A stretch of 61,050 bases of DNA from Candidatus Berkelbacteria bacterium (GTDB taxonomy: Bacteria > Patescibacteriota > UBA1384 > XYA2-FULL-43-10 > CAINNR01). Location: assembly GCA_026397235.1 (NCBI GenBank), contig JAPLVG010000023.1:1-61050 (forward strand), read 5' to 3'. The translations under genes were made by a program, and so were the position numbers. The notes under the pieces are model-generated. The model worked only from the letters and a program-made list of their open reading frames with translations. It did no database searches and was not told the origin of the DNA. Shown here one piece after another: positions 277 through 60,661 of the stretch (position 1 is its first letter; each line of letters begins with the position of its first letter).

Positions 277-307
277 CACGGATTTTTGACACGGATAAAA
301 CACGGAT
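277..307 (+). repeat. Heptamer array, forward arm only (3 x CACGGAT) immediately upstream of infB
   Basis: CACGGAT at 277-283, 290-296, 301-307 with 6- and 4-nt spacers; 5' flank TTCAACTACACGGATTT also found at 47864-47880. Confidence 0.85.
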
Positions 308-11975: not shown

Positions 11976-12039
11976 GTATTTACTTTTAAAGAAATTTCTG
12001 CAATAATCAATTAGTTACATAATAAAGGAAGTGTATAGC

Positions 12040-12108
12040 CACAGATCTACGTCACAGATAGTCACAGATAAGGAAATAATCGGTTTAAATCTGTGGTAAT
12101 AATCAGTG
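12040..12108. repeat. Full heptamer palindromic array (3 forward + 3 reverse) upstream of rpsL
   Basis: CACAGAT at 12040, 12053, 12063 (spacers 6 and 3 nt); 9-nt loop; ATCGGTT 12079, ATCTGTG 12089, ATCAGTG 12102 (spacers 3 and 6 nt, mirrored). Confidence 0.9.
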
Positions 12109-12129
12109 GCAGGACACATCAATTAGAAC

Positions 12130-12549: not shown

Positions 12550-12552
12550 AAC

Positions 12553-12668
12553 CAGGTTAGGGTTAAGAAGCCGGTTTAGAAATAGAAGTTGGAAATTGAG
12601 GTAGGATTAATCCAACTTCTCCATCAAATTTCTACTTCCAAACTGGCATCCTAACCCAAAACCTAACT
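12553..12668. repeat. Long imperfect palindrome filling the rpsL-rpsG spacer
   Basis: Core stem AGAAGTTGGA (12584-12593) / TCCAACTTCT (12611-12620) with 17-nt loop; outer arms GGTTAGGGTTA.../...CCTAACCCAAAACCTAAC also complementary, with bulges. Confidence 0.7.
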
Positions 12669-12679
12669 TCTAAAAAATT

Positions 12680-13156: not shown

Positions 13157-13212
13157 AATACTGTTTTGATAAAACAAAAGCCACGATCTCTCGGGGTTTT
13201 TGTTTTGCTGAA

Positions 13213-13947
13213 ATGATAAAATTGTGCTATAAATTAGTAATCCTAAGCATTCGAGGTGCTCTAGTGAGCTTGCTATTTTCCGCCTTAGAAGAACAGGGTG
13301 TCCGGAACGGTTGGTTAGTCGAGTCGCACAGGAATGGTTTTCCATGTGTCAAGATGGGGAAGGATTGTCGCAGTGGGGAGGAGAAATGGATTTCTCTTCA
13401 TCCAGCGTACAGGAACATCGCATCCGGGAGCCGGATCGAGCGAGGCGTAGTTTACCTGAATGGTAATGGCAAATGGGTGCTTCGTCCCGAGTCCAAGAGG
13501 AGTGAACAGACTGATGGTACCGCTTCAGTGATAGTTCGGGGTTATTTCTATCCCTTTCCAACGTCAACTCACTATCGCTTGGTGCCATGCCCGCAGCGTG
13601 GTATGACGAAGGTGGCTTGGGGTGAGCCGATCTGCAATGTTTGTTTTGAAGGCTATCATGACTGGGTTCACCCGATGTCGGGCGAAAAGAAGCTGTTTCT
13701 GCGCGAATCTGTTCCCGAGACTTTCTGCGCAGATGGTTGGTTCCAACTGGCTACGGAGTCCGTGGTCATCGCTCCAGGAGAGAAGGTGGCAATCAAGCAG
13801 TTGCTGCTCACACTTGTGCCAGGTGGAGCATTCCGTTTGCCAACACTGTCTGAGTATCTGATTGGCACTGATCACATATTGTCGCTATCCCGCGAAGGAC
13901 GGCAGCTGACATTTGAACGACACTGGGAATGGAATCGTGTCGAGTAA
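13213..13947 (+). CDS. Hypothetical protein in a GC-richer cassette (start uncertain; alternative ATG at 13354)
   Basis: 244-codon open frame in a ~0.75-kb stretch visibly richer in G+C than its flanks; no SD seen at either start; no family recognised; followed by its own terminator. Confidence 0.45.
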   Translation: MIKLCYKLVILSIRGALVSLLFSALEEQGVRNGWLVESHRNGFPCVKMGKDCRSGEEKWISLHPAYRNIASGSRIERGVVYLNGNGKWVLRPESKRSEQTDGTASVIVRGYFYPFPTSTHYRLVPCPQRGMTKVAWGEPICNVCFEGYHDWVHPMSGEKKLFLRESVPETFCADGWFQLATESVVIAPGEKVAIKQLLLTLVPGGAFRLPTLSEYLIGTDHILSLSREGRQLTFERHWEWNRVE

Positions 13948-13951
13948 CCGC

Positions 13952-13981
13952 ATCGCCGTGTGTATTCCGGCGATTTTTTTG
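13952..13981 (+). terminator. Rho-independent terminator closing the GC-rich cassette
   Basis: ATCGCCG (13952-13958) / CGGCGAT (13968-13974) followed by T7. Confidence 0.7.
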
Positions 13982-14056
13982 TCACATCGTCCGACTGATT
14001 TGCGCCGATCGGTCACAATCGGTCGGAAGTTTTAAGGTTCAGCTTTTTTGTCTTGT

Positions 14057-14086
14057 TTGACAAGAGTTGAATATTTATGATATAAA
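14057..14086 (+). promoter_or_regulatory. Sigma70-like promoter re-starting transcription for fusA
   Basis: TTGACA (14057-14062), 17-18-nt spacer, TATAAA (14081-14086). Confidence 0.6.
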
Positions 14087-14137
14087 TGTAAGTGCTAAGG
14101 AGGGAGTTTTTTATTTTGGCCGAAAGCCAAAATTCCC

Positions 14138-14216
14138 TACTAAATTACTAATTTAGCCAATATACTAATAATTTCTTATTTCTTATTTGTATATTAGGGG
14201 GATTAGTATATTAGTA
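14138..14216. repeat. Palindromic word array using TACTAAT/ATTAGTA words (fusA leader)
   Basis: Forward TACTAA(A) 14138, TACTAAT ~14146 and ~14163; reverse ATTAGGG, ATTAGTA, ATTAGTA ending at 14216. Same forward/reverse logic as the CACNGAT arrays but a different word. Confidence 0.7.
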
Positions 14217-14235
14217 GTTAATGATTAAGGAGAAT

Positions 14236-16311
14236 ATGCCCCGGGATTATTCACTGGAAAAAACTAGAAACATTGGAATCGCCGCTCACATTGATGCCGG
14301 AAAAACTACCGTCACCGAGCGTATTCTTTACTATACTGGCAAAAAACACAAAATCGGTGAAGTTCATGAAGGCGCTGCCGAAATGGACTGGATGGAACAA
14401 GAAAAAGAGCGCGGCATTACCATCACTTCTGCTGCGACGACCTGTTTTTGGAAAGATAATCGAATAAACATTATTGATACTCCGGGTCACGTTGACTTTA
14501 CAGTTGAAGTTGAGCGCTCTATGCGTGTTCTCGACGGTGCCGTTGTGGTTTTTGATGGTAAAAACGGTGTTGAACCACAATCAGAAACGGTTTGGCGCCA
14601 AGCTGACAAATATAATGTTCCGCGTATTTGTTTCATTAACAAGCTAGATGCTATTGCCGGTGATTTTTATATGAGCTTTAATTCCATAATCGATCGCTTG
14701 AAAGCTAATGCTGTTGCTATGCAACTTCCGGTTGGCAAAGAAAGTGATTTGCGCGGCGTTGTTGACTTAATAGAGCAAAAAGCATACATCTACACTTCTG
14801 AGGATTTGGGAAAAACCTACAAAGTTCAGGATATTCCTGCCGAGATGAAAGCCGACGTTGAAAAATGGCGCGCTGACATGATCGAAAGAATTTCCGAAAC
14901 TGATGACCTACTTTTGGATAAATATCTTGCAGGCAAGGAGCCAACAATTCCTGAGCTTAAAGCAGCTGTTCGAGCTGCTACCATTAAAGGCGAAATGTAC
15001 CCGGTTTTTGCCGGTACTGCACTCAAAAATAAAGGTGTCCAGCCACTACTTGATGCTGTCGTTGATTATTTGCCTTCGCCAATGGATGTTCCACCACTAA
15101 AAGCCAAGGTTTTAGGTTCTGACGAAGAGGTTGAAATTAAAATTGATGACGATGGTCCATTTGTTGCTCTAGCTTTCAAAATCGCTGCCGACCCATTTGT
15201 TGGGAAATTAACATTTTTCCGTGTTTATTCTGGCAAACTAACGTCTGGTAGTTACGTACTAAATACCAGGTCGGGTGAGAAGGAACGAATTGGCCGTATT
15301 CTACGAATGCATGCCAATCACCGAGAAGATGTTTCCGAAGTTTTCTCCGGTGAAATCGCTGCTGCCGTTGGGATGAAAGCGACTGTTACTGGTGATACAT
15401 TATGTGATGTAGGTCAGAAGTATATACTAGAACAAATTATTTTCCCTGAACCAGTTATCTCTATTGCAATTGAGCCAAAAACTAAGGCTGATCAAGAAAA
15501 AATGGGTATTGCTTTGCAAAGACTTTCAGAAGAAGATCCAACCTTCCGTGTTCATACCGACCTAGATTCTGGTCAAACGATTATTGAAGGTATGGGTGAA
15601 CTACACTTGGAAATTATTGTCGATCGAATGAAGCGAGAATTTAAAGTCGAAGCCAATGTTGGAAATCCACAAGTTGCCTACAAAGAAGCAATCCGCAAAT
15701 CTGTTGAGCAAGAAGGTAAATATGTTCGTCAGTCTGGTGGCCGTGGTCAATACGGCCATGTATACTTGAAAATCGAGCCAAATGAAGAAGGCGCCGGATT
15801 TGAGTTTGTCAACAAAATTGTTGGTGGCGCAATTCCAAAAGAATTCATCAGTCCGGTTGAGGCCGGTGTCAAGGAGGCAATGGCCAAAGGAGTTATTGCC
15901 GGCTACCCGGTTGTTGATACCAAAGTTACGCTTTACGATGGAACTTTCCACGATGTTGACTCTTCAGAAATGGCTTTCAAAATTGCCGGTTCCTATGCTT
16001 TTCAAGAAGGTTTTAAGAAAGCCGATCCAATTATTCTCGAGCCTATTATGAAAGTTGAGGTAACAATTCCTGAAGAGTATACTGGAGATGTTGTCGGCGA
16101 CTTAAACGCAAAACGTGGTCAAATTGAAGAAATGATTGATCGCGCCGGAGCCAAGATCATCGACTCTAAAGTTCCGCTATCATCCATGTTCGGCTATGCC
16201 ACTTCACTAAGGTCAATGACTCAAGGCCGCGGAAATTACACCATGGAATTTGATCATTATTCCGAGGTTCCAGGCAATATCGCAGTTCAAATTATAGAGG
16301 GGAAGAAGTAA
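14236..16311 (+). CDS. fusA: Elongation factor G
   Basis: [21 protein letters not shown] motifs. ATG at 14236 is preceded by AAGGAG and aligns with the canonical EF-G N-terminus (the ORF track starts 5 codons earlier at 14221). Confidence 0.97.
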
Positions 16312-16329
16312 GCTTAATGATAGCACTAC

Positions 16330-16398
16330 CACAGATCTATTTCACGGATTAGCACAGACAAATGAAAAATCAGTGAAAATCAGTGAACAAAATCTGTG
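16330..16398. repeat. Full heptamer palindromic array downstream of fusA
   Basis: CACAGAT 16330, CACGGAT 16343, CACAGAC 16353; ATCAGTG 16369, ATCAGTG 16379, ATCTGTG 16392; spacers 6/3 then 3/6. Confidence 0.9.
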
Positions 16399-16423
16399 GG
16401 TGTGTAATCAGTCTTGAATATTG

Positions 16424-16452
16424 TTGACTTTCAGAAAAATTTAGGTTAGTAT
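16424..16452 (+). promoter_or_regulatory. Sigma70-like promoter for tuf
   Basis: TTGACT (16424-16429), 17-nt spacer, TAGTAT (16447-16452), overlapping TATAAT at 16450-16455. Confidence 0.55.
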
Positions 16453-16479
16453 AATAAAGAAATAATAATGAAGAAACAA

Positions 16480-16543
16480 CACTGACAATTACACAGAATA
16501 GACACAGAAAAAATCCGTGTTTGTTCAGTGTGTAATATCAGTG
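16480..16543. repeat. Second (degenerate) heptamer palindromic array in the tuf leader
   Basis: CACTGAC 16480, CACAGAA 16492, CACAGAA 16503; ATCCGTG 16513, TTCAGTG 16524, ATCAGTG 16537. Confidence 0.8.
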
Positions 16544-16559
16544 TAGTTAAGGAGAAAAA

Positions 16560-17738
16560 ATGGCTGCAGAAAAATTTGAAAGAAACAAGCCTCATGTAAA
16601 TGTTGGCACAATTGGACACGTTGACCACGGTAAAACCACACTAACCGCGGCAATTTTGAAAGTCCAAGGCGACAAAGGTATGGCTCGAATTGAGAAATTC
16701 GATGAAATCGACAACGCTCCAGAAGAAAAAGAGCGTGGCATTACTATCGCCACTCATCACTCTGAATATGAAACTGAAAAGCGTCACTACGCTCACGTTG
16801 ACTGCCCAGGTCATGCTGACTACGTCAAAAACATGATCACCGGGGCTGCTCAAATGGATGGTGCTATCCTTGTGGTTTCTGCCGCAGACGGTCCAATGCC
16901 ACAAACCAGAGAGCACATTCTTTTGGCCAAGCAAGTTGGTGTTCCAAAAATTGTTATTTTCTTGAATAAAGTTGATATGGTTGACGATTCTGAGCTAATC
17001 GACCTTGTTGAAATGGAAATTCGCGAACTTTTGACCAAATATGAGTTCGATGGTGATAACACTCCAATCATTCGTGGTTCCGCTCTTAAAGCTCTTAACG
17101 GCGATGCTGATTCCGTCAAAGCCATCGGCGATCTTATGGATGCTATCGATTCTTGGATCCCAGAGCCAACTCGCGATATCGACAAACCATTTATGATGCC
17201 TGTTGAAGACGTTTTCTCAATCAAAGGACGCGGGACAGTTGCTACCGGTAGAATTACTCGCGGTATTGTCAAAGTTAACGACGAAGTTGAAATCGTTGGT
17301 ATTAAAAAGACATCAAAAACTGTTGTTACCGGTGTAGAAATGTTTAGAAAAATGCTTGATCAAGGTCAAGCTGGCGACAATGTCGGAGTGTTGCTTCGTG
17401 GTGTTGAGCGAGAAGATATTGAGCGCGGTCAAGTTTTGGCCAAACCAGGTTCCGTTACTCCACACACAGAATTCGAAGCTACCATTTATGTTTTGACCAA
17501 AGAAGAGGGTGGCCGACATACCCCATTTACCAAAGGATACAAACCACAATTTTACATTGGCACGACCGATGTAACGGGTGAGGTTGAGTTCGAAGGTGAA
17601 ATGGTTATGCCTGGAGACGAAGTTAAAATTACCGTTAAGCTTATCGTTCCAATTGCACTTGAAGAAAATCTACGATTCGCAATCCGCGAAGGTGGAAAAA
17701 CTGTTGGTGCCGGTGTTGTAACAAAGATTGTTAAGTAA
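16560..17738 (+). CDS. tuf: Elongation factor Tu
   Basis: 392 aa; [22 protein letters not shown] motifs. Confidence 0.98.
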
Positions 17739-17760
17739 AATCATTAAATTGTAATTCTAA

Positions 17761-17828
17761 CACAGATTGATTACGCAGATCAGCGCAGATGGAAAGAAAT
17801 CAGCGAAAATCAGCGAGAAAAATCAGTG
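17761..17828. repeat. Full heptamer palindromic array upstream of rpsJ, with compensatory word change
   Basis: CACAGAT 17761, CGCAGAT 17774, CGCAGAT 17784; 8-nt loop; ATCAGCG 17799, ATCAGCG 17809, ATCAGTG 17822. CAC->CGC in inner forward units is matched by GTG->GCG in inner reverse units. Confidence 0.9.
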
Positions 17829-17848
17829 TAAGAATATCCGCAAAAAAT

Positions 17849-18175
17849 ATGCCAGTTGCTAAAGAAACAATTAAACAGAAAATTCGCATTAAGCTCAAGG
17901 CTTATGATTATCGGATAATCGATAAATCAGCAGCTGAAATTATTGAAACTGCAAACCGCACAGGCGCTAAGGTAATCGGCCCGATTCCGCTTCCAACCGA
18001 AATATCAAAGTTGACTGTGATCAAGTCGCCAAATGTTTTCAAGAATAGCCGAGAGCAGTTTGAAATGCGAGTCCACAAGCGGCTAATCGACGTTATTAAT
18101 CCGACATCGAAAACAATTGATTCGCTGATGTCGCTCGATTTGCCTGCAGGTGTGGACATTGAGATCAAAATGTGA
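17849..18175 (+). CDS. rpsJ: 30S ribosomal protein S10
   Basis: ATG at 17849 gives [25 protein letters not shown]..., a normal-length S10; the ORF-track start at 17789 lies inside the repeat array. Confidence 0.95.
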
Positions 18176-18182
18176 TAACTTA

Positions 18183-18294
18183 CCTATAGTCTGCTGGCCA
18201 CCATCGGTGGCTAGTGACTAGGGGTAAAAATCAAATAATCCAAACCGAGGATAACAGTCGCCACGGCGACAGGTTCCTGGTTGATTTATTTTTT
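18183..18294 (+). promoter_or_regulatory. GC-rich double-hairpin spacer with terminator-like 3' end between rpsJ and rplC
   Basis: Hairpin 1 spans 18183-18224 (inner GGCCACC/GGTGGCT). Hairpin 2 spans 18228-18287 (AAATCAA/TTGATTT outer, GTCGCC/GGCGAC inner) and is followed by T6 at 18289-18294. Confidence 0.5.
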
Positions 18295-18308
18295 AAAAAG
18301 GTTGCTTT

Positions 18309-18887
18309 GTGAAAATCTTAATTGGCAAAAAATTAAAGATGACTAGAATCTTCACAGATGAAGGTCTGGTTCGTGCCGTTACCGCTGTGGAAGCAAAGCC
18401 ATGCGAGGTTTCTGAAATCAAATCAGTTAAAAAGGTTGGTTACGACGCAATCAAAGTCAAAACCCAAAATCGAAAAAAGACCAAATATTCTGAATTTCGA
18501 GTAAAACCTGCCTCGCCGGCAGGCAGGGATGGTGAGGTCGAAGCTAAAATTGGCGACAAAATCACTGTGGAAGCTTTCAATGTTGGTGATATGATTACTG
18601 TTATCGGAACCAGCAAAGGAAAAGGTTTCGCTGGTACAGTTAAGCGATATCACTTTGTCAAAGGCCCAGCATCACATGGCTCAAATCAGCAACGCCGAGT
18701 CGGTTCAATTGGGGCAGGTTACCCACAGCGAGTTATTAAGGGTCAGAGAATGCCAGGCCATATGGGTGCCGAGCGAGTTACAGTCAAAAATCTTCAAGTT
18801 GTTGATATCGATGCGAAAAACAACATTATGCTGATTGCCGGTCCAGTTCCAGGTGCTACCGGATCAGAAGTAAGAATAATAGGCTAA
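18309..18887 (+). CDS. rplC: 50S ribosomal protein L3
   Basis: 192 aa, GTG start; SKGKGFAGTVKRYHF and GQRMPGHMG motifs; S10-cluster position. Confidence 0.95.
   Translation: MKILIGKKLKMTRIFTDEGLVRAVTAVEAKPCEVSEIKSVKKVGYDAIKVKTQNRKKTKYSEFRVKPASPAGRDGEVEAKIGDKITVEAFNVGDMITVIGTSKGKGFAGTVKRYHFVKGPASHGSNQQRRVGSIGAGYPQRVIKGQRMPGHMGAERVTVKNLQVVDIDAKNNIMLIAGPVPGATGSEVRIIG
18507..18527. repeat. GC-rich palindrome inside rplC coding sequence
   Basis: CCTGCCT cgccggc AGGCAGG, translated in frame as PASPAGRDG; same core as the rplX palindrome. Confidence 0.8.
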
Positions 18888-18888
18888 T

Positions 18889-19575
18889 ATGAAAATCGAA
18901 TTTTACAAAAAAAACGGCGAGGTTGACGTGCCAGTAGAATATCCCAAGAATCTAGTCTCCGAGGTTTCGGACGCTAGATTGTTGGAATATGTGCGAATGA
19001 TTCGTGCCAACATGCGGGCAAACAACGCTCAGACAAAAGACCGAAGTGAAGTTTCCGGCGGTGGTAAGAAACCATGGAAGCAAAAAGGTACTGGCCGTGC
19101 GCGTGTCGGCTCGTCCCGCTCGCCAATTTGGAGTGGTGGTGGCGTAACTTTTGGTCCAACCAATGATCGCAATTATACAATCAAATTAAACAAAAAAGAA
19201 AAACGTGCTGCGCTTTTGGCTGCAATTTATGCTAAAGTTTCTGCTAAAAAAGCAATTGGCATTTCTGATTTGAAATTTTCGGCGCCAAAAACCGCTGATG
19301 CCGCCAAGGCGCTAGAAAAACTTCCAATTAACGGTAAAGTTATGGTTTTCGTTCCAGCTGCAGATGAAAACGCCAAAAAGTCATTTCGCAATATTCCAAT
19401 TGTCACACTAGCTGTTGCTAATACCATCGATATCATTTCTATTATTTCTGCTGATAGCATTTTGTTCACCAAGGAATCATTGACCGAGCTTGGAGATCAT
19501 TTTACAACCACAGATCGAAAATCACAGATCAGCACTGATAAATCAAAGAAATTGAAAGAGGTAGTAAGTGAATAA
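18889..19575 (+). CDS. rplD: 50S ribosomal protein L4
   Basis: 228 aa; GGGKKPWKQKGTGRAR motif; C-terminal ~20 aa encoded by a heptamer half-array. Confidence 0.95.
   Translation: MKIEFYKKNGEVDVPVEYPKNLVSEVSDARLLEYVRMIRANMRANNAQTKDRSEVSGGGKKPWKQKGTGRARVGSSRSPIWSGGGVTFGPTNDRNYTIKLNKKEKRAALLAAIYAKVSAKKAIGISDLKFSAPKTADAAKALEKLPINGKVMVFVPAADENAKKSFRNIPIVTLAVANTIDIISIISADSILFTKESLTELGDHFTTTDRKSQISTDKSKKLKEVVSE
19509..19539 (+). repeat. Heptamer array, forward arm only, inside the 3' end of rplD
   Basis: CACAGAT 19509, CACAGAT 19523, CACTGAT 19533; translated as ...TTTDRKSQISTDK... Confidence 0.85.
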
Positions 19576-19945
19576 TTTAGTAATAAAAAGCCCAGTAATA
19601 TCCGAAAAAAGCTTTGCTCTTGCTAGCACTGGTGTTTATGTATTTTTGGTTACACCGGAAGCTAACAAGAAAATTGTTGCTACCCAAGTGCACGAAATGT
19701 ATAAAGTCGATGTCGAAGAGGTCAGAATTATTAATATTCCTGGTAAAATTAAAAGAGCTGGTAAGAAAATGGGCCGTCGCTCTGACATCAAAAAGGCTTT
19801 AGTAAAAGTTAAAAAAGGTCAAAAAATTGCAATCTTCGAAGAAGAAAAATCGGACAAGAAAAAGGAAGAAACCACACAGATTGTTGACACAGAAAAAACA
19901 CAGAAAAAACCAAAGGCTGAAGTCAGTGAAAAGTCAGTGAAATGA
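19568..19945 (+). CDS. rplW: 50S ribosomal protein L23
   Basis: 125 aa, GTG start overlapping the rplD end; L23 core (PVISEKSF..., VKKALVKVKKGQKI) plus a ~28-aa tail read through a full heptamer array. Confidence 0.93.
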   Translation: MNNLVIKSPVISEKSFALASTGVYVFLVTPEANKKIVATQVHEMYKVDVEEVRIINIPGKIKRAGKKMGRRSDIKKALVKVKKGQKIAIFEEEKSDKKKEETTQIVDTEKTQKKPKAEVSEKSVK

Positions 19946-19953
19946 AGTCAGAG
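19875..19953. repeat. Full heptamer palindromic array overlapping the rplW 3' end
   Basis: CACAGAT 19875, CACAGAA, CACAGAA; then AGTCAGTG, AGTCAGTG, AGTCAGAG ending at 19953; the rplW stop (19943-19945) lies between reverse units 2 and 3. Confidence 0.85.
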
Positions 19954-19976
19954 TTAGAATTACAATAAAAAACATT

Positions 19977-20804
19977 ATGGCAATTAGAAAATTAAAACCA
20001 AATATGAATTCACAGCGTGGCACAAGCTACTCAGATTTTTCGACTCTTTCAAAAGTCGCCGGTCCAAAGTCACTTCGAGCAATTTTAACCAAAAAAGCAG
20101 GTAGAAATAATACTGGTAGAATCACTGTGGCCCACCGTGGTGGCGGATCAAAGCGATTCTATCGAATCGTTAATTTTGGCACAATTTTAGAAGAATCTGC
20201 CAAAATTGTTGCAATCGAATATGACCCAAACCGCTCTGCTAATATTGCGCTTATCGAATACAGCAATGGCTCACAGGATTATATTCTTGCCCCAGAAAAG
20301 GCTATCGTTGGTACAAAAATCGAAAACAAGGAATTAACAGCTGTAAAACCTGGCAACCGAATGATTTTAAAGAACATTCCAGTTGGAACCGCCGTTCACA
20401 ATATTGAACTGCTTCCGGGCCAAGGTGGAAAACTTTGTCGCAGTGCTGGAAATTCCGCGACACTGCTTTCCATCGATGGCGACATTGCCCAGATTAAACT
20501 CCCTTCATCTGAGGTTCGCCGAATTTCATCGTTTTGCTTTGGTTCAATTGGAACTGTCGGAAACTCTGATACAATGAATAAAGCAGTAGGACGTGCTGGA
20601 AGAACCCGTCACATGGGAATTCGTCCGACTGTTCGCGGTAAAGCCAAAAACCCTTGCGATCATCCACATGGTGGTGGTGAAGGAAATACTTCAATCGGTT
20701 TAACACATCCAAAAACACCATGGGGTATGCCAGCATTGGGTTACAGAACTAGAAATAAAAAAAAGAAATCAAAGTTGATGATAATTAAACGCAGGAGCAA
20801 ATAA
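19977..20804 (+). CDS. rplB: 50S ribosomal protein L2
   Basis: 275 aa; [17 protein letters not shown] motif. Confidence 0.97.
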
Positions 20805-21097
20805 TGTCGAGGTCACTTAAAAAAGGTCCATACATTGACGAGCGACTTTTGAAAAAAGTTGTCGAATCGAAAAAAGCTTCTGGCCGCATTATTGTTAAAA
20901 CCTGGTCAAGAGCATGCGCAATTTCACCAGAAATGGTTGGCGCCACAATCGGGGTTCACAATGGTCGCGAACATACACCGGTTTTAATTGTCGAAGATAT
21001 GATAGGTCACAAACTCGGTGAATTTTCTCCGACCAGAAAATTCCGCCGACATGGTGGCAAAATGGCTAAGGATCAAGCGGTTGAGGAGAAAAAATAG
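20804..21097 (+). CDS. rpsS: 30S ribosomal protein S19
   Basis: 97 aa; [12 protein letters not shown]..., GVHNGREH motif. Confidence 0.97.
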
Positions 21098-21106
21098 CAT
21101 AAGGAA

Positions 21107-21192
21107 GTGTCCAGCCACAGATTTATGTCACAAATTGACACAAATAATACCAAATCTGTGAAAATCTGTGGTAAAGATTTGTGGCTATACAC
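21107..21192. repeat. Full heptamer palindromic array with extended outer stem upstream of rplV
   Basis: GTGTCCAGCCACAGAT...CACAAAT 21129...CACAAAT 21139 / ATCTGTG 21154, ATCTGTG 21164, ATTTGTGGCTATACAC (21177-21192); spacers 6/3 and 3/6. Confidence 0.9.
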
Positions 21193-21204
21193 TACAAAAA
21201 TAAT

Positions 21205-21594
21205 ATGGAAATTAAAGTTAAAAGTAAATATTTGCGGATTTCTCCCCGAAAACTTCGGCCGGTTGTTAACTTTGTACGTGGAATGAACGCAATCGAGGCT
21301 AAATCAAAATTAAAGTTTCAGCCAAACAAGGGCGCAAATATGATTGTTAGCTTAATCGACAACGCCATGTCAGTAGTAAAAAGCGGAGATATGGCATCAG
21401 AGTCATTTTATGTAGCAGCTATTGCTTGCGGCGACGGCCCAAGACTAAAACGTGGCACACCGGTATCGAAAGGCAGAATGGCGCCGATTGTCAAAAGACA
21501 ATCTCACATGACTTTGACACTTTCAGATCAAGCACCTAAGTTACCAAAGAAACTTAAGGCACCTAAGGAGACCCCAAATGGGACAAAAAGTTAA
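21205..21594 (+). CDS. rplV: 50S ribosomal protein L22
   Basis: ATG at 21205 gives MEIKVKSKYLRISPRKLRPV...; the ORF-track GTG start at 21181 lies in the repeat array. Confidence 0.93.
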   Translation: MEIKVKSKYLRISPRKLRPVVNFVRGMNAIEAKSKLKFQPNKGANMIVSLIDNAMSVVKSGDMASESFYVAAIACGDGPRLKRGTPVSKGRMAPIVKRQSHMTLTLSDQAPKLPKKLKAPKETPNGTKS

Positions 21595-22237
21595 TCCAAC
21601 AAGCTGGAGAATCAAAATAAACGAGACCTGGAAGTCCCGCTGGTTTGGTGGCGCAAAATATGCTGAAATGCTGCACGAGGATTTGGCAATTCGAAAATAT
21701 ATTATGACCGAGTATAAATCTGCTGCCATTTCTCGCGTTGAAATTGACCGAGATGCCAATAAAATCACTGTTGCCATCAAAACTGCCCGTCCTGGTGTTA
21801 TTATCGGCAAAGGTGGAGCTGGAGCCAGTAAAATTAAAGAAGGAATTGAAAAATTGCTTCGTGGTAGCAAAGTTAAAATCAATATTGAAGAAATCAGAAA
21901 TCCAGACGCAGATGCCAATGTTGTTGCTCAGAACATCGCCAATCAATTGGAAAAGCGAATGCCTTATCGCCGGGCAATGAAACAAGCAATCGAAAAAGCC
22001 GGTCAATCAAACGTCAAAGGTATTAAAGTTCAAATTTCAGGTCGCTTGAACGGTGCCGAAATCGCTCGGAGTGAAAAAGCCATTTCCGGACTTGTCCCAC
22101 TTTCAACCCTAAAAAGCCAAATCGATTATGCCTATGTGCCAGCACAAACAACTTTCGGCGTTATTGGTATTAAGGTTTGGATTTATAAAGGCGATACACA
22201 GAAATTCGATATGCACACCGGTTACGAAAGTAAATAA
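21578..22237 (+). CDS. rpsC: 30S ribosomal protein S3
   Basis: 219 aa; MGQKVNPTSWR..., KH domain, GRLNGAEIAR motif. Confidence 0.97.
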   Translation: MGQKVNPTSWRIKINETWKSRWFGGAKYAEMLHEDLAIRKYIMTEYKSAAISRVEIDRDANKITVAIKTARPGVIIGKGGAGASKIKEGIEKLLRGSKVKINIEEIRNPDADANVVAQNIANQLEKRMPYRRAMKQAIEKAGQSNVKGIKVQISGRLNGAEIARSEKAISGLVPLSTLKSQIDYAYVPAQTTFGVIGIKVWIYKGDTQKFDMHTGYESK

Positions 22238-22259
22238 AATAATAAAAGGAAAACACCAC

Positions 22260-22325
22260 CACAGATTTTATTCACAGATTGACACAGAAAAATGAATCGG
22301 TGAATATCAGTGAAATAGATCAGTG
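22260..22325. repeat. Full heptamer palindromic array upstream of rplP
   Basis: CACAGAT 22260, CACAGAT 22273, CACAGAA 22283; ATCGGTG 22296, ATCAGTG 22306, ATCAGTG 22319; spacers 6/3 and 3/6. Confidence 0.9.
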
Positions 22326-22342
22326 GAAGTGAAATCAATATT

Positions 22343-22750
22343 ATGTTGTTACCAAAGAAAATGAAACATCGCAAACAACATCGGGGAAAACTACCTGGCA
22401 ATGCCACGCGAGGTTTTGAAATTAACTTTGGTTCATATGCCATTAAAACACTGGAACGCGGTTGGATTTCTGCCCGTCAAATCGAAGCCGCGCGTCGTGC
22501 CATGACCCGCTATATCAAACGCGGTGGCCAAATTTGGATTCGAATCTTTCCAGACAAACCAGTTACACTGACATCAGCTGAGACTCCAATGGGTTCAGGC
22601 AAAGGCGCAGTTGATCACTTTGTTGCAACAGTAAAACCCGGGACCATTCTATTTGAAATGGATGGAGTCGCACCGGAAGTTGCTAAGGAAGCTATGCGGT
22701 TGGCGGCATATAAACTTAGTGTCAAAACTAAATTCTTGGTTAAAGAATAA
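22343..22750 (+). CDS. rplP: 50S ribosomal protein L16
   Basis: 135 aa; [15 protein letters not shown]..., RMGSGKG-type motif (PMGSGKGAV). Confidence 0.97.
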
Positions 22751-22843
22751 GGAATCCAGCTCTTTCATGGGCTGTAATAAAAATAACATCAAAATTATGA
22801 ACATCATCAAATTCAATATAGTAAATTCAACCGAAAGGGCTGG

Positions 22844-23050
22844 ATGAGCAGAGAAAGAATTGAAAAACTAAAAAACATGAAACCAGCGGAGCTTGAAAAA
22901 GAGCGCGGAGTTTTAGTAGCCCATATTCTTGCTTTGCGTGTCGATATTGCTAATCACAAAACCAAGGGAATCCACAAAATTAAGCAAATGAAACGCGATA
23001 TTGCTCGAATCAATACTATTGCCACAATGCGAAAGGAAATCAATGACTAA
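22844..23050 (+). CDS. rpmC: 50S ribosomal protein L29
   Basis: 68 aa; helical L29-like sequence in the canonical position between rplP and rpsQ. Confidence 0.9.
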   Translation: MSRERIEKLKNMKPAELEKERGVLVAHILALRVDIANHKTKGIHKIKQMKRDIARINTIATMRKEIND

Positions 23051-23300
23051 TGAAAAAGCAAAATCTGGGAAAACGCTTAACGGAACAGTTGTTTCAATTG
23101 CAATGAACAAAACAGTGGTTCTTGATGTTGAGAGATCGAAAACCCATCGTCTTTATGGCAAGAGTTTTACAGTTAATACAAAGATAAAGGCCCACAACGA
23201 ATTTGAAAACGTAGCAATTGGTGACACAGTTACAATTACCGAAACCAGACCAATTTCCAAAGAAGTAGCATTCAAAGTTATTAAAGTGGGTGAGAAATGA
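23043..23300 (+). CDS. rpsQ: 30S ribosomal protein S17
   Basis: ATG at 23043 (ATGA overlap with the rpmC stop) gives [18 protein letters not shown]...; S17 OB-fold sequence. Confidence 0.93.
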
Positions 23301-23662
23301 TCCAGCCAGGAACACGACTAATCGTAGCTGACAATAGTGGCGCAAAGGTTGTCGAATGCATCACCACACTTTTTAATTCCAGCCGTGATAAAGCTCACAT
23401 TGGCCAGGTAATTTCTGCATCAGTCAAATCAGCAACACCACGAGCTGGCGTAAAGAAAAAAGAGATTGTTCGTGCCGTTATTGTCCGACAAGCCGCACCT
23501 TTTGGTCGCCCAGATGGCTCGACAATCAAATTCTCTGAAAATGCTGTTGTGATTGTCGATAAAGATGGAAATCCACGTGGAACGCGCGTATTTGGCCCAA
23601 TCCCACGGGAACTTCGAGATGGTTTTATGAAAATAATTTCCTTAGCACCAGAGGTAGTATAA
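23297..23662 (+). CDS. rplN: 50S ribosomal protein L14
   Basis: 121 aa; [17 protein letters not shown]... Confidence 0.97.
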
Positions 23663-23665
23663 CCA

Positions 23666-23696
23666 CACAGATTTATTACACAGAATTAACACAGAA
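23666..23696 (+). repeat. Heptamer array, forward arm only, upstream of rplX
   Basis: CACAGAT 23666, CACAGAA 23679, CACAGAA 23690. Confidence 0.8.
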
Positions 23697-23709
23697 AAAA
23701 TAAAATATT

Positions 23710-24072
23710 ATGAAGATAAGAAAAAATGACAATGTATCAGTAATAGCAGGCAAAGACCGTGGCAAAACCGGTGTAGTTGAGCGTGTTTTCCTAGCCGATG
23801 ACAAAATTGTTGTTACCGGTATTGCTGTTTACAAAAAAAGTGTCAAACCTACCCGCAGAGCCCCAAAAGGTGGAATTATTGAAGTAAATGCCAAAATTCC
23901 TGTTAGTAATGTTGCCATCATCTGCCCCAGCTGTTCAAAAATCACAAAAATTGGTTATTCCGTTTCCGGCGACCTGCCTGCCCTGCCTGCCGGCAGGCAG
24001 GCGGTAAGGCACGGTAAAAAGATTCGTATTTGCAAAAAATGCAAAGCTAGTCTAGAGGTTGAAAAGAAGTAA
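23710..24072 (+). CDS. rplX: 50S ribosomal protein L24 (with CxxC...CxxC and an in-frame palindrome insertion)
   Basis: 120 aa; KOW motif (KIRKNDNVSVIAGKDRGKTG); CPSC...CKKC; extra DLPALPAGRQAVRH segment encoded by a GC-rich palindrome. Confidence 0.93.
   Translation: MKIRKNDNVSVIAGKDRGKTGVVERVFLADDKIVVTGIAVYKKSVKPTRRAPKGGIIEVNAKIPVSNVAIICPSCSKITKIGYSVSGDLPALPAGRQAVRHGKKIRICKKCKASLEVEKK
23971..24001. repeat. GC-rich perfect 20-bp palindrome (plus partial tandem copy) inside rplX
   Basis: CCTGCCTGCC|GGCAGGCAGG at 23982-24001, preceded by a partial tandem copy CCTGCCTGC (23973-23981) that abuts it; in frame. Confidence 0.9.
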
Positions 24073-24073
24073 T

Positions 24074-24652: not shown

Positions 24653-24830
24653 AGAAGCGTTGGTTGTAAAAGCAAATAGAAAACCAAAATTTTCAACACG
24701 AATAGTAAGACGTTGCCGTGTTTGTGGTCGTAGACGCGGATATTATAGAAAATTCCAAGTATGCCGAATCTGCTTGCGAGAAATCGCTGGCCGTGGTGAG
24801 CTTCCTGGTGTAACAAAATCTTCATGGTAA
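24645..24830 (+). CDS. rpsN: 30S ribosomal protein S14, short zinc-binding type
   Basis: 61 aa; [20 protein letters not shown] (CxxC...CxxC). Confidence 0.95.
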
Positions 24831-24852
24831 ATAATAAGGAAGTAAAAACTCT

Positions 24853-24922
24853 CACAGATCAATTGTCACAGATGAACACAGATAAGAAAAAATCAGTGAA
24901 TATCAGTGTTGACAGATCAGTG
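24853..24922. repeat. Full heptamer palindromic array upstream of rpsH
   Basis: CACAGAT 24853, 24867, 24877; ATCAGTG 24892, 24902, 24916; spacers 7/3 and 3/7. The 5' half, including AATAAGGAAGTAAAAACT, is ~90% identical to the array at 58181. Confidence 0.9.
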
Positions 24923-24959
24923 AAAGTTTATATTACATTTTAGAATAAAGAGAGACAAC

Positions 24960-25337: not shown

Positions 25338-25339
25338 AA

Positions 25340-25416
25340 CACTGACCAATCCCACTGATTTAGCACTGATAAATGAATTCTTTGGTCAGTGAAAAGTCAG
25401 TGTAGATAAGTCAGTG
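25340..25416. repeat. Full heptamer palindromic array (CACTGAC/GTCAGTG words) upstream of rplF
   Basis: CACTGAC 25340, CACTGAT 25353, CACTGAT 25364; GTCAGTG 25385, 25396, 25410; here all 7 positions can pair (one G-U). Confidence 0.9.
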
Positions 25417-25443
25417 TTAGAATAATCAATTAATGGAATTATC

Positions 25444-26361: not shown

Positions 26362-26373
26362 AAGGATAATATT

Positions 26374-27090
26374 ATGGATAAACCAAGAAGAGAAAGAAAA
26401 GATCGCAACGACCAAGGCTCAGAATTTGAAGAGCGGGTAGTTGAAATTTCCCGCGTTTCCCGCGTGGTTAAAGGTGGCCGCAGAATTCGTTTCCGTGTTC
26501 TCATTGTTATTGGTGATAAAAAAGGCAAAATTGGTTACGGCATTGCTAAGGGCAATGAAATTGCCGTTGCGGTTAAAAAAGCTGTTTCCTTTGCTAAGAA
26601 AAAAATGATTATCGTTCCTGTGGTAAATGACACCATTCCATACGAAGTCAACCAAACTCTTGGAAGCGCTCGTGTATTTCTAAAACCAGCAGCCCAAGGT
26701 ACGTCAGTCGTTGCTGGTGGTGTTGTCCGCGTCATCGCTGAACTTTCTGGAATCAAAAACCTGCTGTCAAAAACTATTGGTACATCAAATAAAGTAAATA
26801 ATGTAAAAACTGTTTTCTTGGCACTTTCTAGTTTTGATCCAGCAAAAGTTGAAATCGTTAAAAAGCGATATGCGGATAAAAAGGTAGAAACTACACTGAT
26901 TGTTGACACGGAATTGGACACAGAAAAACAGCCGATTGTAGAAGTTGCGCCTCAGTCAAAGGTTGATGGGTCTATGACCCAAGTTGCTGATATTGCTGAA
27001 GCAGGTGCCGAAGTTATTCCAGCTGAAGCAAAAGCTGAAAAAACAGAAAAGTCAAAAAAGATCGTAAAATCAAAGGCTGTTAAGAAATAA
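26374..27090 (+). CDS. rpsE: 30S ribosomal protein S5 with ~70-aa C-terminal extension
   Basis: 238 aa; S5 core (VSRVVKGGRRIRFRVLIVIGD..., GTSVVAGG); the extension begins at a heptamer half-array. Confidence 0.95.
   Translation: MDKPRRERKDRNDQGSEFEERVVEISRVSRVVKGGRRIRFRVLIVIGDKKGKIGYGIAKGNEIAVAVKKAVSFAKKKMIIVPVVNDTIPYEVNQTLGSARVFLKPAAQGTSVVAGGVVRVIAELSGIKNLLSKTIGTSNKVNNVKTVFLALSSFDPAKVEIVKKRYADKKVETTLIVDTELDTEKQPIVEVAPQSKVDGSMTQVADIAEAGAEVIPAEAKAEKTEKSKKIVKSKAVKK
26894..26925 (+). repeat. Heptamer array, forward arm only, inside rpsE
   Basis: CACTGAT 26894, CACGGAA 26907, CACAGAA 26919; translated ...TLIVDTELDTEK... Confidence 0.75.
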
Positions 27091-28441: not shown

Positions 28442-28443
28442 GG

Positions 28444-47252: not shown

Positions 47253-47882
47253 ATGCTACCGAATGTTATTATTCTGCTTGGTGGGCCCGCCTCGGGGAAA
47301 GGGACACAAGCAAAAGTCTTGGCCAAACGTATTGGCTACACCTATTTTGGAACTGGTGATCTGATGCGCGCTGAAGTTGAAAAAGGCACCGATTTAGGTA
47401 AAACCATGGCTGATTTAATGAACCGTGGCAAATTAGTGCCGGACAAATTAACAATCCCAATTGTTATCAACAGGCTTGAAGAACTTAGGAGCACAAATAT
47501 AGTTTTAGATGGTTTTCCTCGAAATTTAGATCAGGCCGAAATTTTGCAGGATGTATTTCCAAATGAAAACTTTTTAGTACTAAATATTGAAGTTTCGGGA
47601 GATGAGTTGTTAAAACGAATGTCATCTCGTCGGATTTGTGATAAATGTGGCAACATAATCACAGTTAAAAATGATGAAAAAGTTTGCGAAAAGTGCGGCG
47701 GCAACCTAATTCAGCGAGATGATGATAAGCCAGAGGTGCTAACGAAGCGGATTCAATCGTACGAGGAGCAGACTAAGCCAATTATTGCCTACTACCGCGA
47801 AAAAGGCTTGGTCCGTGATATTGATGGCCAGCCACCAATTGAAGAAGTTACAAAAGAAATTTTCAACTACACGGATTTCTAA
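47253..47882 (+). CDS. adk: Adenylate kinase (zinc-lid type)
   Basis: GGPASGKGTQ P-loop; CDKCG...CEKCGG lid. ATG 47253 is preceded by GAGGTGA. The C-terminal residues FNYTDF are encoded by a heptamer array. Confidence 0.95.
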   Translation: MLPNVIILLGGPASGKGTQAKVLAKRIGYTYFGTGDLMRAEVEKGTDLGKTMADLMNRGKLVPDKLTIPIVINRLEELRSTNIVLDGFPRNLDQAEILQDVFPNENFLVLNIEVSGDELLKRMSSRRICDKCGNIITVKNDEKVCEKCGGNLIQRDDDKPEVLTKRIQSYEEQTKPIIAYYREKGLVRDIDGQPPIEEVTKEIFNYTDF

Positions 47883-47899
47883 CACGGATTGGAACGGAT
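47870..47899 (+). repeat. Heptamer array, forward arm only, spanning the adk stop codon
   Basis: CACGGAT 47870, CACGGAT 47883, AACGGAT 47893. Confidence 0.85.
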
Positions 47900-56992: not shown

Positions 56993-57022
56993 CACTAATC
57001 TTAACACGGATATGACACAGAT
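56993..57022 (+). repeat. Heptamer array, forward arm only, upstream of rpsK
   Basis: CACTAAT 56993, CACGGAT 57005, CACAGAT 57016. Confidence 0.7.
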
Positions 57023-57032
57023 AAATTCATTC

Positions 57033-57066
57033 GTATATTAGATAAATTAGTAATTTAGTAGGAGCC
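57033..57066 (+). repeat. 34-nt leader identical to the rpsD leader
   Basis: GTATATTAGATAAATTAGTAATTTAGTAGGAGCC, identical at 57518-57551; includes the SD (GGAG). Confidence 0.9.
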
Positions 57067-57473: not shown

Positions 57474-57506
57474 CACGGATTTATCACACGGATATTGATC
57501 ATAGAT
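57474..57506 (+). repeat. Heptamer array, forward arm only, downstream of rpsK
   Basis: CACGGAT 57474, CACGGAT 57487, CATAGAT 57500; 5' flank AACTACACGGATTT as at 271 and 47866. Confidence 0.8.
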
Positions 57507-57517
57507 AAAATACATTA

Positions 57518-57551
57518 GTATATTAGATAAATTAGTAATTTAGTAGGAGCC
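57518..57551 (+). repeat. 34-nt leader identical to the rpsK leader
   Basis: Identical to 57033-57066. Confidence 0.9.
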
Positions 57552-58152: not shown

Positions 58153-58180
58153 TATATAAAAATAATGAAGTAAAAACTAT

Positions 58181-58247
58181 CACAGATCTATTGTCACTGA
58201 TGGACACAGATAAAATAATCCGTGAAAATCCGTGTATAAGATCCGTG
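58181..58247. repeat. Full heptamer palindromic array upstream of rpoA
   Basis: CACAGAT 58181, CACTGAT 58195, CACAGAT 58205; ATCCGTG 58218, 58228, 58241; spacers 7/3 and 3/6. Confidence 0.9.
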
Positions 58248-60563: not shown

Positions 60564-60645
60564 CACTGACTAAAATCACACTGATATTCCACTGACTAAA
60601 GGAACCGGTATTTGTCAGTGCTTGGTCAGTGTTGTCAAGTCAGTG
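60564..60645. repeat. Full heptamer palindromic array (CACTGAC/GTCAGTG) downstream of rpsI
   Basis: CACTGAC 60564, CACTGAT 60579, CACTGAC 60590; GTCAGTG 60614, 60625, 60639; all helices fully pairable. Confidence 0.9.
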
Positions 60646-60661
60646 ATAGAATTACAATTTT

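Follow-up and report, generated by a model that had tools for sequence, protein, structure and literature searches.

Heptamer direct repeats of the word TAACTGA have been described in Beggiatoaceae, Cyanobacteria and Bacteroidetes (MacGregor 2015, PMC4679880). Their horizontal spread was suspected, with no mechanism; no associated gene was reported, and it was proposed that a translational regulator acts at them (PMC4679880). REPINs, hairpin-forming doublets of repetitive extragenic palindromes (REPs), are associated with REP-associated tyrosine transposases (RAYTs) and are short, palindromic, non-autonomous intergenic repeats found as inverted doublets and singlets (Bertels and Rainey; reviewed in PMC3337134). 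Here we analysed a 61-kb stretch of DNA (contig JAPLVG010000023.1, hereafter the window) from a metagenome-assembled genome of Candidatus Berkelbacteria, a member of the Candidate Phyla Radiation (CPR)/Patescibacteria, in which inverted arrays of the heptamer CACNGAT stand between core transcription and translation genes. These arrays are genuine features, inserted in this DNA when compared with close relatives, with heptamers that are conserved and spacers that are not, and they are homologous to both ends of cassettes that carry a gene of the GxxExxY nuclease family. We consider it likely that they are the gene-less ends of this selfish cassette, of which a form lacking the open reading frame (ORF) has multiplied here.

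All 11 full arrays listed in an earlier note on this DNA were borne out. Each comprises three forward words of CACNGAT type, a short A-rich loop and three reverse words of ATCNGTG type, and element size ranged from 65 to 115 nt. Forward units started 12–15 nt and then 10–11 nt apart, and the reverse arm mirrored this arrangement with 10–11 nt followed by 13–14 nt. The mirrored spacing described in the note was borne out. The loop, given there as 8–13 nt, measured 3–17 nt. The exemplar reads CACAGAT-tgatta-CGCAGAT-cag-CGCAGAT-ggaaagaa-ATCAGCG-aaa-ATCAGCG-agaaaa-ATCAGTG and is flanked by the stop codon of tuf (17738) and the true start of rpsJ (17850). The word CACNGAY occurred 112 times in the window, compared with 34 ± 5.6 times in shuffled sequence. 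Phased CACNGAT triples numbered 27 (17 on the plus strand, 10 on the minus strand), against a mean of 0.08 and a maximum of 1 in 100 first-order Markov simulations. A lack of enrichment over a composition-matched null would have spoken against the pattern; these oriented triples were instead greatly in excess of expectation.

Six or seven forward-only half arrays had been overlooked (277–307, 19509–19539, 23666–23696, 26894–26925, 47870–47899, 56993–57022 and 57474–57493), and no reverse-only half array was present. Array-bearing sites total at least 17, every one of them in core transcription or translation operons or before infB. The statement that arrays occupy most gene junctions was too strong, as they were found at about 10 of the 24 junctions from rpoC to rplO, and at about 16 of about 36 over all core operons of the window. 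Three word subfamilies were distinguished: CACAGAT, CACTGAC and CACGGAT. The outer module seen earlier in several copies was confirmed, but the elements are longer than had been stated, since modules outside the heptamers were found to recur or to pair (left, AATAAGGAAGT-N8; left ATTGTAATTCTAA with its right-hand complement TTAGAATTACAAT; GTGTnnAGC with GCnnnACAC). Homogeneity of the units within an arm was incomplete, with degenerate units at 12040 (R1, ATCGGTT), 19875 (R3, GTCAGAG) and 21116 (F2/F3, CACAAAT), where F and R denote forward and reverse units. The identity of about 90% reported for 24831–24883 and 58161–58211 was measured at about 87%. All copies in the window have the same orientation relative to transcription, such that A-rich rather than U-rich sequence comes after the stem. 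The arrays are given below with the minimum free energy (MFE) and z-score (z) of predicted folding; L117 and L131 are ribosomal-protein loci of relatives, and SD denotes the Shine-Dalgarno sequence.

12019..12117, plus strand: full 3+3 array between rpoC and rpsL; heptamers 12040–12108; outer modules ATAATAAAGGAAGTGTATAGC (left) and GCAGGACAC (right); R1 degenerate (ATCGGTT); MFE −20.8 kcal/mol, z −3.6.
16330..16398, plus strand: full array between fusA and tuf; upstream of a conserved promoter-like TTGACT-17-TAGTAT (16424–16452); missing from L117 and L131; z −4.6.
16480..16543, plus strand: second full array between fusA and tuf; within the leader of tuf, 3′ of the promoter-like site and 5′ of the SD; missing from L117; z −6.3.
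17748..17835, plus strand: the exemplar, a full array between tuf and rpsJ; heptamers 17761–17828, the inner four units being CGC/GCG; left module ATTGTAATTCTAA; z −4.8.
19875..19966, plus strand: full array between rplW and rplB; degenerate reverse arm; right module TTAGAATTACAAT; 5′ part translated as the rplW C-terminal tail; z +0.45.
21098..21192, plus strand: full array between rpsS and rplV; heptamers 21116–21183; outer stem GTGTCCAGC/GCTATACAC; left module CATAAGGAAGT; z −5.2.
22260..22325, plus strand: full array between rpsC and rplP; z −4.2.
24831..24945, plus strand: full array between rpsN and rpsH; heptamers 24853–24922; modules AATAAGGAAGTAAAAACTCT ... AAAGTTTATATTAC; z −3.4.
25340..25430, plus strand: full array between rpsH and rplF; CACTGAY/GTCAGTG, the full complementarity of its units being confirmed; right module TTAGAATAATCAAT; MFE −36 kcal/mol, z −7.4.
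58161..58247, plus strand: full array between rpsD and rpoA; left module and CACAGAT arm resemble those at 24831; reverse arm ATCCGTG ×3, the complement of the CACGGAT word, which gives the A-opposite-C centre reported for heptamers from 58181; z −2.6.
60564..60658, plus strand: full array before the ORF at 60662; CACTGAC/GTCAGTG; right module ATAGAATTACAAT; z −3.9.
277..307, plus strand: half array, 3 × CACGGAT; ends 8 nt 5′ of the infB start codon.
19509..19539, plus strand: half array within the rplD 3′ end; translated as a protein tail.
23666..23696, plus strand: half array between rplN and rplX; a clean 48-nt insert compared with the overlapping TAATG in L117.
26894..26925, plus strand: half array, CACTGAT, CACGGAA, CACAGAA; inside the rpsE C-terminal extension.
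47870..47899, plus strand: half array of the CACGGAT word; spans the adk stop codon at the adk-map junction.
56993..57060, plus strand: half array, CACTAAT, CACGGAT, CACAGAT, followed by an ATTAGTA-word module and SD, before rpsK.
57474..57545, plus strand: half array, 2 × CACGGAT and CATAGAT, followed by the same ATTAGTA-word module and SD, before rpsD.

Comparison with relatives was made at 28 orthologous ribosomal-protein loci, fetched by means of the S3 protein. The closest relative, L117, shares 100% amino-acid identity in S3 and S14, 99% in L16, and about 85% nucleotide identity with the window. It has none of the window arrays. Spacers in L117 and in the window, respectively, measured 91 and 248 nt for fusA-tuf, 21 and 111 nt for tuf-rpsJ, −1 and 31 nt for rplW-rplB, 9 and 104 nt for rpsS-rplV, 13 and 105 nt for rpsC-rplP, −1 (TAATG) and 47 nt for rplN-rplX, 59 (of unrelated sequence) and 129 nt for rpsN-rpsH, and 1 and 106 nt for rpsH-rplF. 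The boundaries between filled and empty junctions were clean. Compact junctions in the closest relatives often had an overlapping TAATG, compared with inserts of 48–130 nt in the window. Loci L118, L122 and L131 were array-free and compact at these junctions, and compact junctions were also found in Berkelbacteria Athens1014_28 and, by gene table, in the P0122 contig of a 95% EF-Tu relative. Athens1014_28 carries one array of CACTGAC/TTAGAAT subtype at rplC-rplD, where the window spacer is 1 nt, and L119 carries a half array at rpsS-rplV. Conservation across orthologous spacers was accordingly not found at the junctions of the relatives examined. By parsimony, the arrays would have been gained in the lineage of the window, at sites differing between lineages, and in this they appear to behave as a mobile element and not as a conserved regulator.

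Elsewhere, similar arms enclose a gene. At locus L012, forward and reverse arms lie 379 nt apart with a 129-aa ORF between them, and those of L003 enclose a decayed copy of the same ORF. The L012 ORF and three others beside arms belong to the GxxExxY family (TIGR04256, E 1e-29 to 1e-41; PF13366, PDDEXK_3), giving four pattern-selected loci with cassettes. The selection bias was removed by choosing homologues by protein similarity alone and fetching the contigs of six, which held eight gene instances. All eight lay between housekeeping genes (L31/prfA, murE-like, hemB/hemL, iol genes, add/His_Phos), co-directional with the downstream gene. Without exception, the forward arm, with two to four units of CACNGAT type, ended just before the ATG, and the reverse arm began at or just past the stop codon. 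PDDEXK_3 was the sole recurrent family among small ORFs beside arrays (4/60), other families occurring once each; no PF05635 gene (four-helix bundle, protein of the 23S intervening sequence (IVS)) was found among the ORFs beside arrays. A complete cassette consists of an outer module, three to four CACNGAT units, a GxxExxY gene of about 125 aa, three to four ATCNGTG units and the inverted outer module, and is found between housekeeping genes of operons, in sense orientation, in many bacterial phyla.

The Berkelbacteria cassette L145 has a left end AGGAAATAAAAACTCT-CACAGATctatcaaCACAGATaatCACTGAT and a right end ATCTGTGaatATCAGTGacaatagATCTGTG-AGAGTTTATACTAC. The two halves of the window array at 24828–24950 align, left with left and right with right, with the ends of L145 and of a Saccharibacteria cassette, outer modules included, at mean column identities of 81% (left) and 72% (right). 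Because both halves align with cassette ends and the gene is missing, the window arrays correspond to two cassette ends joined without the gene. Of the three options left by the earlier note, a MITE-like selfish element (MITE, miniature inverted-repeat transposable element) was thus supported: the arrays are missing in relatives, occupy junctions that differ by lineage, and are homologous to cassette ends.

The GxxExxY family is large: a single query had about 2,500 relatives (E ≤ 1e-10). Residues D69, E79 and K81, together with G27, E30 and Y33, were invariant in 53 homologues. A structure model (predicted local distance difference test, pLDDT, 93) had Cas4, lambda exonuclease, MGME1 and Hjc as fold neighbours, all generic PD-(D/E)XK proteins, while a sequence search of the PDB returned no match. 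Judged by its conserved residues and model, the nuclease looks active. A survey of PD-(D/E)XK proteins lists PDDEXK_3 as of unknown function, with multiple transfers (PMC3424549). Arm words of GxxExxY genes included CACAGAT, CACTGAA, CAGATT and, in L114, CGAATATT. The L114 gene (5200–5720) is a distant member of the family and is flanked by inverted CTTACGAATATTGC words, not CACNGAT, which hints that the arm word changes together with the nuclease.

The loops may retain traces of the gene. The L145 gene begins aatATGgaa and ends atcttgTAA; AAATGA in the loops of 16330, 22260 and 25340, and TCTTTG at the end of the 25340 loop, look, if weakly, like remnants of the ORF start and end, and the 25340 loop (AAATGAATTCTTTG) may hold both. 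Apparent remnants of this kind, and the degraded GxxExxY pseudogene between the arms of L003, would be expected if a complete cassette had inserted at each junction and its ORF had later been deleted in situ, the ORF-less form never having moved. Such a history would need about 17 independent insertions and about 17 near-complete deletions within 30 kb, and no intermediate or intact cassette was found in the window or in the 28 related loci. The AAATGA junction common to three loops fits instead the spreading of one deletion derivative. In-situ decay is improbable on these grounds.

The ORF always lay exactly between F3 and R1, and ORF-less arrays far outnumbered ORF-bearing ones among the matches listed. 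Both observations would suit an independent repeat that serves as a landing pad, with GxxExxY as a homing endonuclease that copies its gene into the array centre; small PD-(D/E)XK homing endonucleases exist, I-Ssp6803I being an example. The spread of the ORF-less arrays would, however, be left unexplained. Moreover, the outer modules travel with both forms, and some cassettes (L066, L067) have forward arms on both sides. We regard this arrangement as very unlikely.

The arrays might also have been selected by the host as RNA, as in the first option of the note, a segmented hairpin: an RNase III or other processing site, a block to 3′-exonucleases, or a translational insulator between cistrons. 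A segmented hairpin was predicted for 10 of the 11 full arrays (MFE −18 to −36 kcal/mol, z −2.6 to −7.4). The single orientation, the occupation of only the highly expressed core operons of the window and the occurrence of similar arrays by tuf, fusA, rpsO, groEL and tRNA genes in other phyla point in the same direction. Because hairpin folding is expected of any imperfect palindrome, selection on pairing was assessed in 35 distinct 3+3 elements. Standard pairs made up 91.2% of the hairpin register, 91.0% of the anti-register (F1-R1, F3-R3) and 91.0% of a shifted register, so the covariation check gave no register-specific support. Hairpins are predicted to form, but a selected helix is not indicated. 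The centre base paired in 65% of cells and was unpaired in 35%. Compared with across-element shuffles, pairing was 91.2% versus 89.0% and two-sided changes were 18 versus 8, a modest excess in favour of an RNA element. As it is not register-specific, this excess reflects both arms sharing a word variant rather than the maintenance of pairs. The compensatory change noted in the exemplar (CAC to CGC with GTG to GCG) is present there, but in the wider sample CGC variants were mostly uncompensated, giving A·C mismatches in L010, L078, L092 and L105 and G·U pairs in L050, L063, L082 and L091.

Other observations bear on the same question. Orthologous junctions of all close relatives examined were without arrays, the six or seven half arrays are unable to form the hairpin, and the full array at 19875 had no predicted hairpin fold. 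Nor would a helix explain why the word CACNGAT is kept in more than 10 phyla. No Rfam family was identified, with no match at gathering scores in the whole window and none even at E ≤ 1 for 16300–25450. No sense-strand terminator was found at any array in a promoter and terminator scan. A generic structured cis-regulatory RNA was rejected for want of register-specific pairing and orthologous-site conservation, and the absence of register covariation and of conservation, the mismatched centre and the hairpin-less half arrays all argue against the first option. A host-selected RNA element is thus unlikely.

The six specified heptamer positions were 88.6% identical between window copies, compared with 46% for the spacers and 35% expected from composition. 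Sequence-specific protein recognition is indicated, since the words are conserved with a free centre, are phased at 10–11 and 13–14 nt, and are kept across phyla. We infer that the heptamers would be CAC-N-GAT recognition sites of the element's own protein, not a selected helix; the GxxExxY nuclease is the only protein that travels with the arrays. The second option of the note, sites for a CAC-N-GAT-binding protein, was probably right as to recognition but not as to a host regulon, as the protein would belong to the element. Conserved heptamers with a free centre base, phasing of 10–11 bp, equal to one helical turn, and inverted arms would also suit a host DNA-binding regulator or nucleoid protein controlling the ribosomal operons. 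This hardly agrees with presence and absence between close relatives, or with the 188 unrelated gene families that flank arrays in other genomes among the matches listed. In addition, the arrays travel with the nuclease gene and not with a regulon, and promoter-like sites were not enriched in the array-bearing region (36 versus 30.4 ± 5.1 in shuffles). Control by such a host protein is most improbable. Likenesses to CsrA sites, DnaA boxes, CtsR and MraZ sites, Fur hexamers and the heptamer of recombination signal sequences were dropped, as the words mismatch and the arrays are insertions.

The distribution beyond Berkelbacteria was examined in one exact-pattern scan (CACAGAT-N6-7-CACAGA-N4-5-CACAGA) of 185,579 species genomes. 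At least 114 stretches matched, compared with a chance figure estimated at roughly 17. The matches listed fell in more than 10 bacterial phyla and included Saprospiraceae, Chitinophagaceae, Algoriphagus, Runella, Flavobacterium, Bacteroidales, Omnitrophota, Saccharibacteria, Berkelbacteria and other Patescibacteria, as well as Planctomycetia, Anaerolineales, Dehalococcoidia, Syntrophomonas, Thermodesulfovibrionia, WOR-3, Abditibacteriota and others; several of these genomes hold many copies each. Among these matches the grammar was constant, with forward units first, reverse units after, and spacers alternating between 3 and 6–7 nt; FFFRRR was the commonest form and RRRFFF was rare. Their flanking genes were diverse (188 Pfam families in 125 ORFs), and no recurrent transposase family, Y1 included, was found in the top 25 Pfam families of these ORFs. 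Translation genes recurred among the neighbours; examples of these and of groEL were tuf-rpsJ in Thermodesulfovibrionia (L099), fusA in Omnitrophota (L080), rpsO in ADurb.Bin212 (L035) and groEL in Saccharibacteria (L109). At L069, an array lies between tRNA-Thr and tRNA-Tyr within a tRNA cluster. The idea of arms as general tRNA flanks was dropped after a tRNA scan of the window and 30 loci, in which only L069 showed this arrangement. As IMG/VR viral contigs gave only four pattern matches, one of them a convincing array, phages are not an obvious vector.

In the mechanism that we favour, that of a selfish cassette and its gene-less offspring, the ends of a cassette would have been joined head to head across a 3–17-nt A-rich remnant. 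The ORF-less form would then have landed at at least 17 sites, in the rpoBC-str-S10-spc-alpha super-operon and before infB. A GxxExxY nuclease from elsewhere in the genome would bind the heptamer arrays and mobilise them in trans, a movement that would leave no target-site duplication. By analogy with RAYTs and REPINs, and with transposases and MITEs, this nuclease is most probably the mover. That all copies point the same way is best accounted for by selection against the reverse orientation, in which U-rich tracts would follow the stems. As side effects of an element that the host tolerates, array mRNA would fold into segmented hairpins between cistrons, TAATG translational coupling is replaced by spacers of 48–130 nt, and four arrays are read as C-terminal tails (rplD, rplW, rpsE, adk). 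Any host function of the arrays is probably incidental.

Several points weigh against this explanation. Neither the 61-kb window nor the related ribosomal-protein loci (28 loci, about 230 kb) contained a GxxExxY gene, so the trans-acting source in the genome is assumed, not seen. We know of no PD-(D/E)XK protein of such size that transposes alone. No target-site duplication of 2 bp or more was present at the three cleanest filled and empty pairs (rplN-rplX, rpsH-rplF and rpsC-rplP), which excludes a classical DDE-type MITE. The copies are quite diverged in their spacers, so that either the spread was not very recent or there were several source copies. Arrays of the window are confined to core operons, with none inside an 18-kb island (27.7–45.8 kb), whereas random selfish spread predicts otherwise; this restriction may have arisen because strongly transcribed DNA is targeted or because the arrays are mildly beneficial. 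Recurrence beside tuf, fusA, rpsO, groEL and tRNA genes could similarly reflect selection or targeting. Lastly, the modest excess of two-sided changes (18 versus 8) is compatible with some selection for pairing.

Going one step further, GxxExxY genes and inverted CACNGAT arrays may form an undescribed class of nuclease-only, duplication-free elements that ride within operons in sense orientation, with gene-less, REPIN-like offspring, in more than 10 phyla, a proposal to which we give somewhat less than an even chance. No description of the arrays, or of their link to GxxExxY, was found in the literature, a search of incomplete coverage that leaves an earlier description possible.

The EF-Tu encoded in the window is 100% identical to an NCBI protein of Candidatus Berkelbacteria. 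The gene order of the window runs infB, a CHAP/LysM protein, obg, rpoB, rpoC, rpsL, rpsG, a 1-kb odd unit, fusA, tuf and the genes from S10 to L15; after L15 come an 18-kb island, secY, adk, map and, later, S13-S11-S4-rpoA-L17. Translation of array sequence yields the C-terminal tails of L4, L23 and S5 and the last residues of adenylate kinase (19509–19539, 19875–19945, 26894–26925 and 47870–47882). The mechanically called S10 ORF (17789–18175, 128 aa) is falsely extended through an array.

Palindromes built from other words were also observed. The rpsL-rpsG spacer (12550–12679) holds one of the same 3+3 design with a different word, GGTTAGG / GGTTAAG / GGTTTAG followed by a central hairpin and CCAAAC / CCTAACC / ACCTAAC. 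Between rplP and rpmC, a 93-nt palindromic insert at 22751–22843 (CCAGCTCTTTC ... GAAAGGGCTGG) is not made of CACNGAT words; it is missing from L117, L118 and L122, whose spacers measure 9 nt. Relatives carry further word-array palindromes at the same operon junctions, with CAAGYG words in L131 (2292–2465) and AAGATT words in L118 (2744–2818), and others occur at several junctions of L123 and L124. A second word, ATTAGTA/AGTTAGTA, also forms arrays, which are found immediately 5′ of the SDs of fusA, rplO, secY, rpsK and rpsD (14185–14220, 27091–27125, 47221–47240, 57029–57060 and 57510–57545), and at 312–418 of L119. The copies at 57023–57060 and 57506–57545 are near-identical, both 3′ of CACGGAT half arrays. 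This composite also occurs in L119, and the rplO copy of ATTAGTA is missing from L117. The ATTAGTA module probably represents a further inserted element, one that supplies an SD of its own.

Other features of the window are of a different kind. The rpsJ-rplC spacer (18176–18308) contains a hairpin followed by a T-run (ggataacagtcgccacggcgacaggttcc ... tttttt), which, unlike the arrays, is kept in L117 and L131 and is a candidate for a genuine attenuator or terminator within the S10 operon. Two small hairpins in the rplR-rpsE spacer (26326–26373; GGCGCTCAGCGCC, CACGCTCAGCGTG) are common to L122 (4204–4253) and not found in L117. Between rpsG and fusA, the 1-kb unit at 13157–14220 has its own promoter-like site, terminator-like hairpins (13171–13206 and 13949–13980), a body of about 730 nt far more GC-rich than its surroundings, and flanking inverted TAAATTAGTAAT words (13230–13241 / 14144–14155). 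Its 244-aa ORF (13213–13947) has no Pfam match and the unit no Rfam match; it could be a structured RNA or an orphan gene cassette. No rpmD (L30) gene stands between rpsE and rplO (27091–27134), the usual state in CPR bacteria. The 18-kb island (27700–45880) separates rplO from secY; in relatives the two genes are neighbours, as in L120 and, with 50 nt between them, in the P0122 contig. It encodes Bro-N, GIY-YIG, MerR/HTH_17, an EcoRI-type methylase, GmrSD/HNH and a PDDEXK_1 nuclease, a content that suggests a mobile or defence island interrupting the spc operon. A 573-aa ankyrin-repeat protein on the minus strand (50034–51755) has a G+C content of 0.49, clearly above the rest of the window.

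On the explanation favoured here, a striking pattern is accounted for without a new regulatory RNA. A streamlined CPR genome would have absorbed, in even its most conserved operon, at least 17 mobile-element insertions, some breaking translational coupling and others becoming protein tails. An abundant family of unknown function, GxxExxY (TIGR04256/PF13366), is tied to a defined flanking DNA motif, which makes its activity testable. If the nuclease mobilises the arrays, this would be a transposable or homing element of a novel kind, and operon structure in uncultured bacteria would have a new source of variation. If an undescribed class is indeed involved, a large orphan family would gain a function, and a second, independent relationship of the REPIN-RAYT type would be added. 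A caution for annotation also follows, as arrays create false ORF extensions (the 128-aa S10 ORF from 17789; the rplW, rplD and rpsE tails).

Compared with known systems, the arrays are not REPs or bacterial interspersed mosaic elements (BIMEs), clustered regularly interspaced short palindromic repeats (CRISPR) or an Rfam family, in agreement with the earlier note, as judged by unit structure, spacing and the Rfam result. CRISPR was rejected because 7-nt words, 3–8-nt spacers and inverted arms contrast with direct repeats of 23–50 nt separated by unique spacers of similar length. The likeness to REPINs is closer. Both are short, non-autonomous palindromes, lie mostly just 3′ of stop codons and show no target-site duplication, and the REP-RAYT link was likewise found through a mobilising gene flanked by inverted repeats. 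The partner here is a PD-(D/E)XK nuclease of about 125 aa, whereas that of REPINs is a Y1 HUH RAYT transposase. The arms have three to four spaced heptamers instead of a single imperfect palindrome of 20–40 nt with a GTAG head, the gene is carried inside the element as cargo, in sense orientation within operons, and the same word recurs across more than 10 phyla. Membership of the REP/BIME/REPIN-RAYT group was rejected, since sequence and unit differ and no recurrent Y1 family was present among the listed flanking Pfam families.

Like MITEs, the arrays are small, non-coding and multi-copy, have inverted ends homologous to an ORF-bearing parent and are polymorphic in presence between relatives. 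They differ in lacking a target-site duplication and a recognised transposase in the parent, and in that copies conserve only heptamer islands and not the whole sequence. The ends of Mu and Tn7 hold multiple transposase-binding sites, to which the repeated heptamers are comparable. Integron attC sites are imperfect palindromes of 57–141 nt right after the stop codon of a cassette, recognised as a structure with unpaired bases. No attC core sites (RYYYAAC/GTTRRRY) were seen by eye in the copies displayed, no formal attC or integrase search being made; the arrays flank core ribosomal genes, not cassettes, and their sequence is conserved, not only their structure. The IVSs of 23S rRNA are inserts with small ORFs and inverted-repeat bounds in highly expressed transcripts, tolerated since the stem is processed. 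Their protein family, PF05635, is different from GxxExxY, and no array in an rRNA gene turned up among the loci looked at, without a search aimed at rRNA genes.

The TAACTGA repeats are the nearest published phenomenon found, within the incomplete coverage of the search. They too are heptamers in distant phyla, often just 5′ of start codons, and occur in ribosomal-protein operons (fusA, L3, S4, S1). They are, however, contiguous, without spacers, and the BOGUAY genome holds 169 direct sets against one indirect repeat (PMC4679880). The arrays were not assigned to this type, as their units lie 3–8 nt apart, have an inverted arm and use a different word. The description that fits them is the one derived here, of GxxExxY cassette ends, which held in all eight protein-sampled instances and in the four pattern-selected loci.

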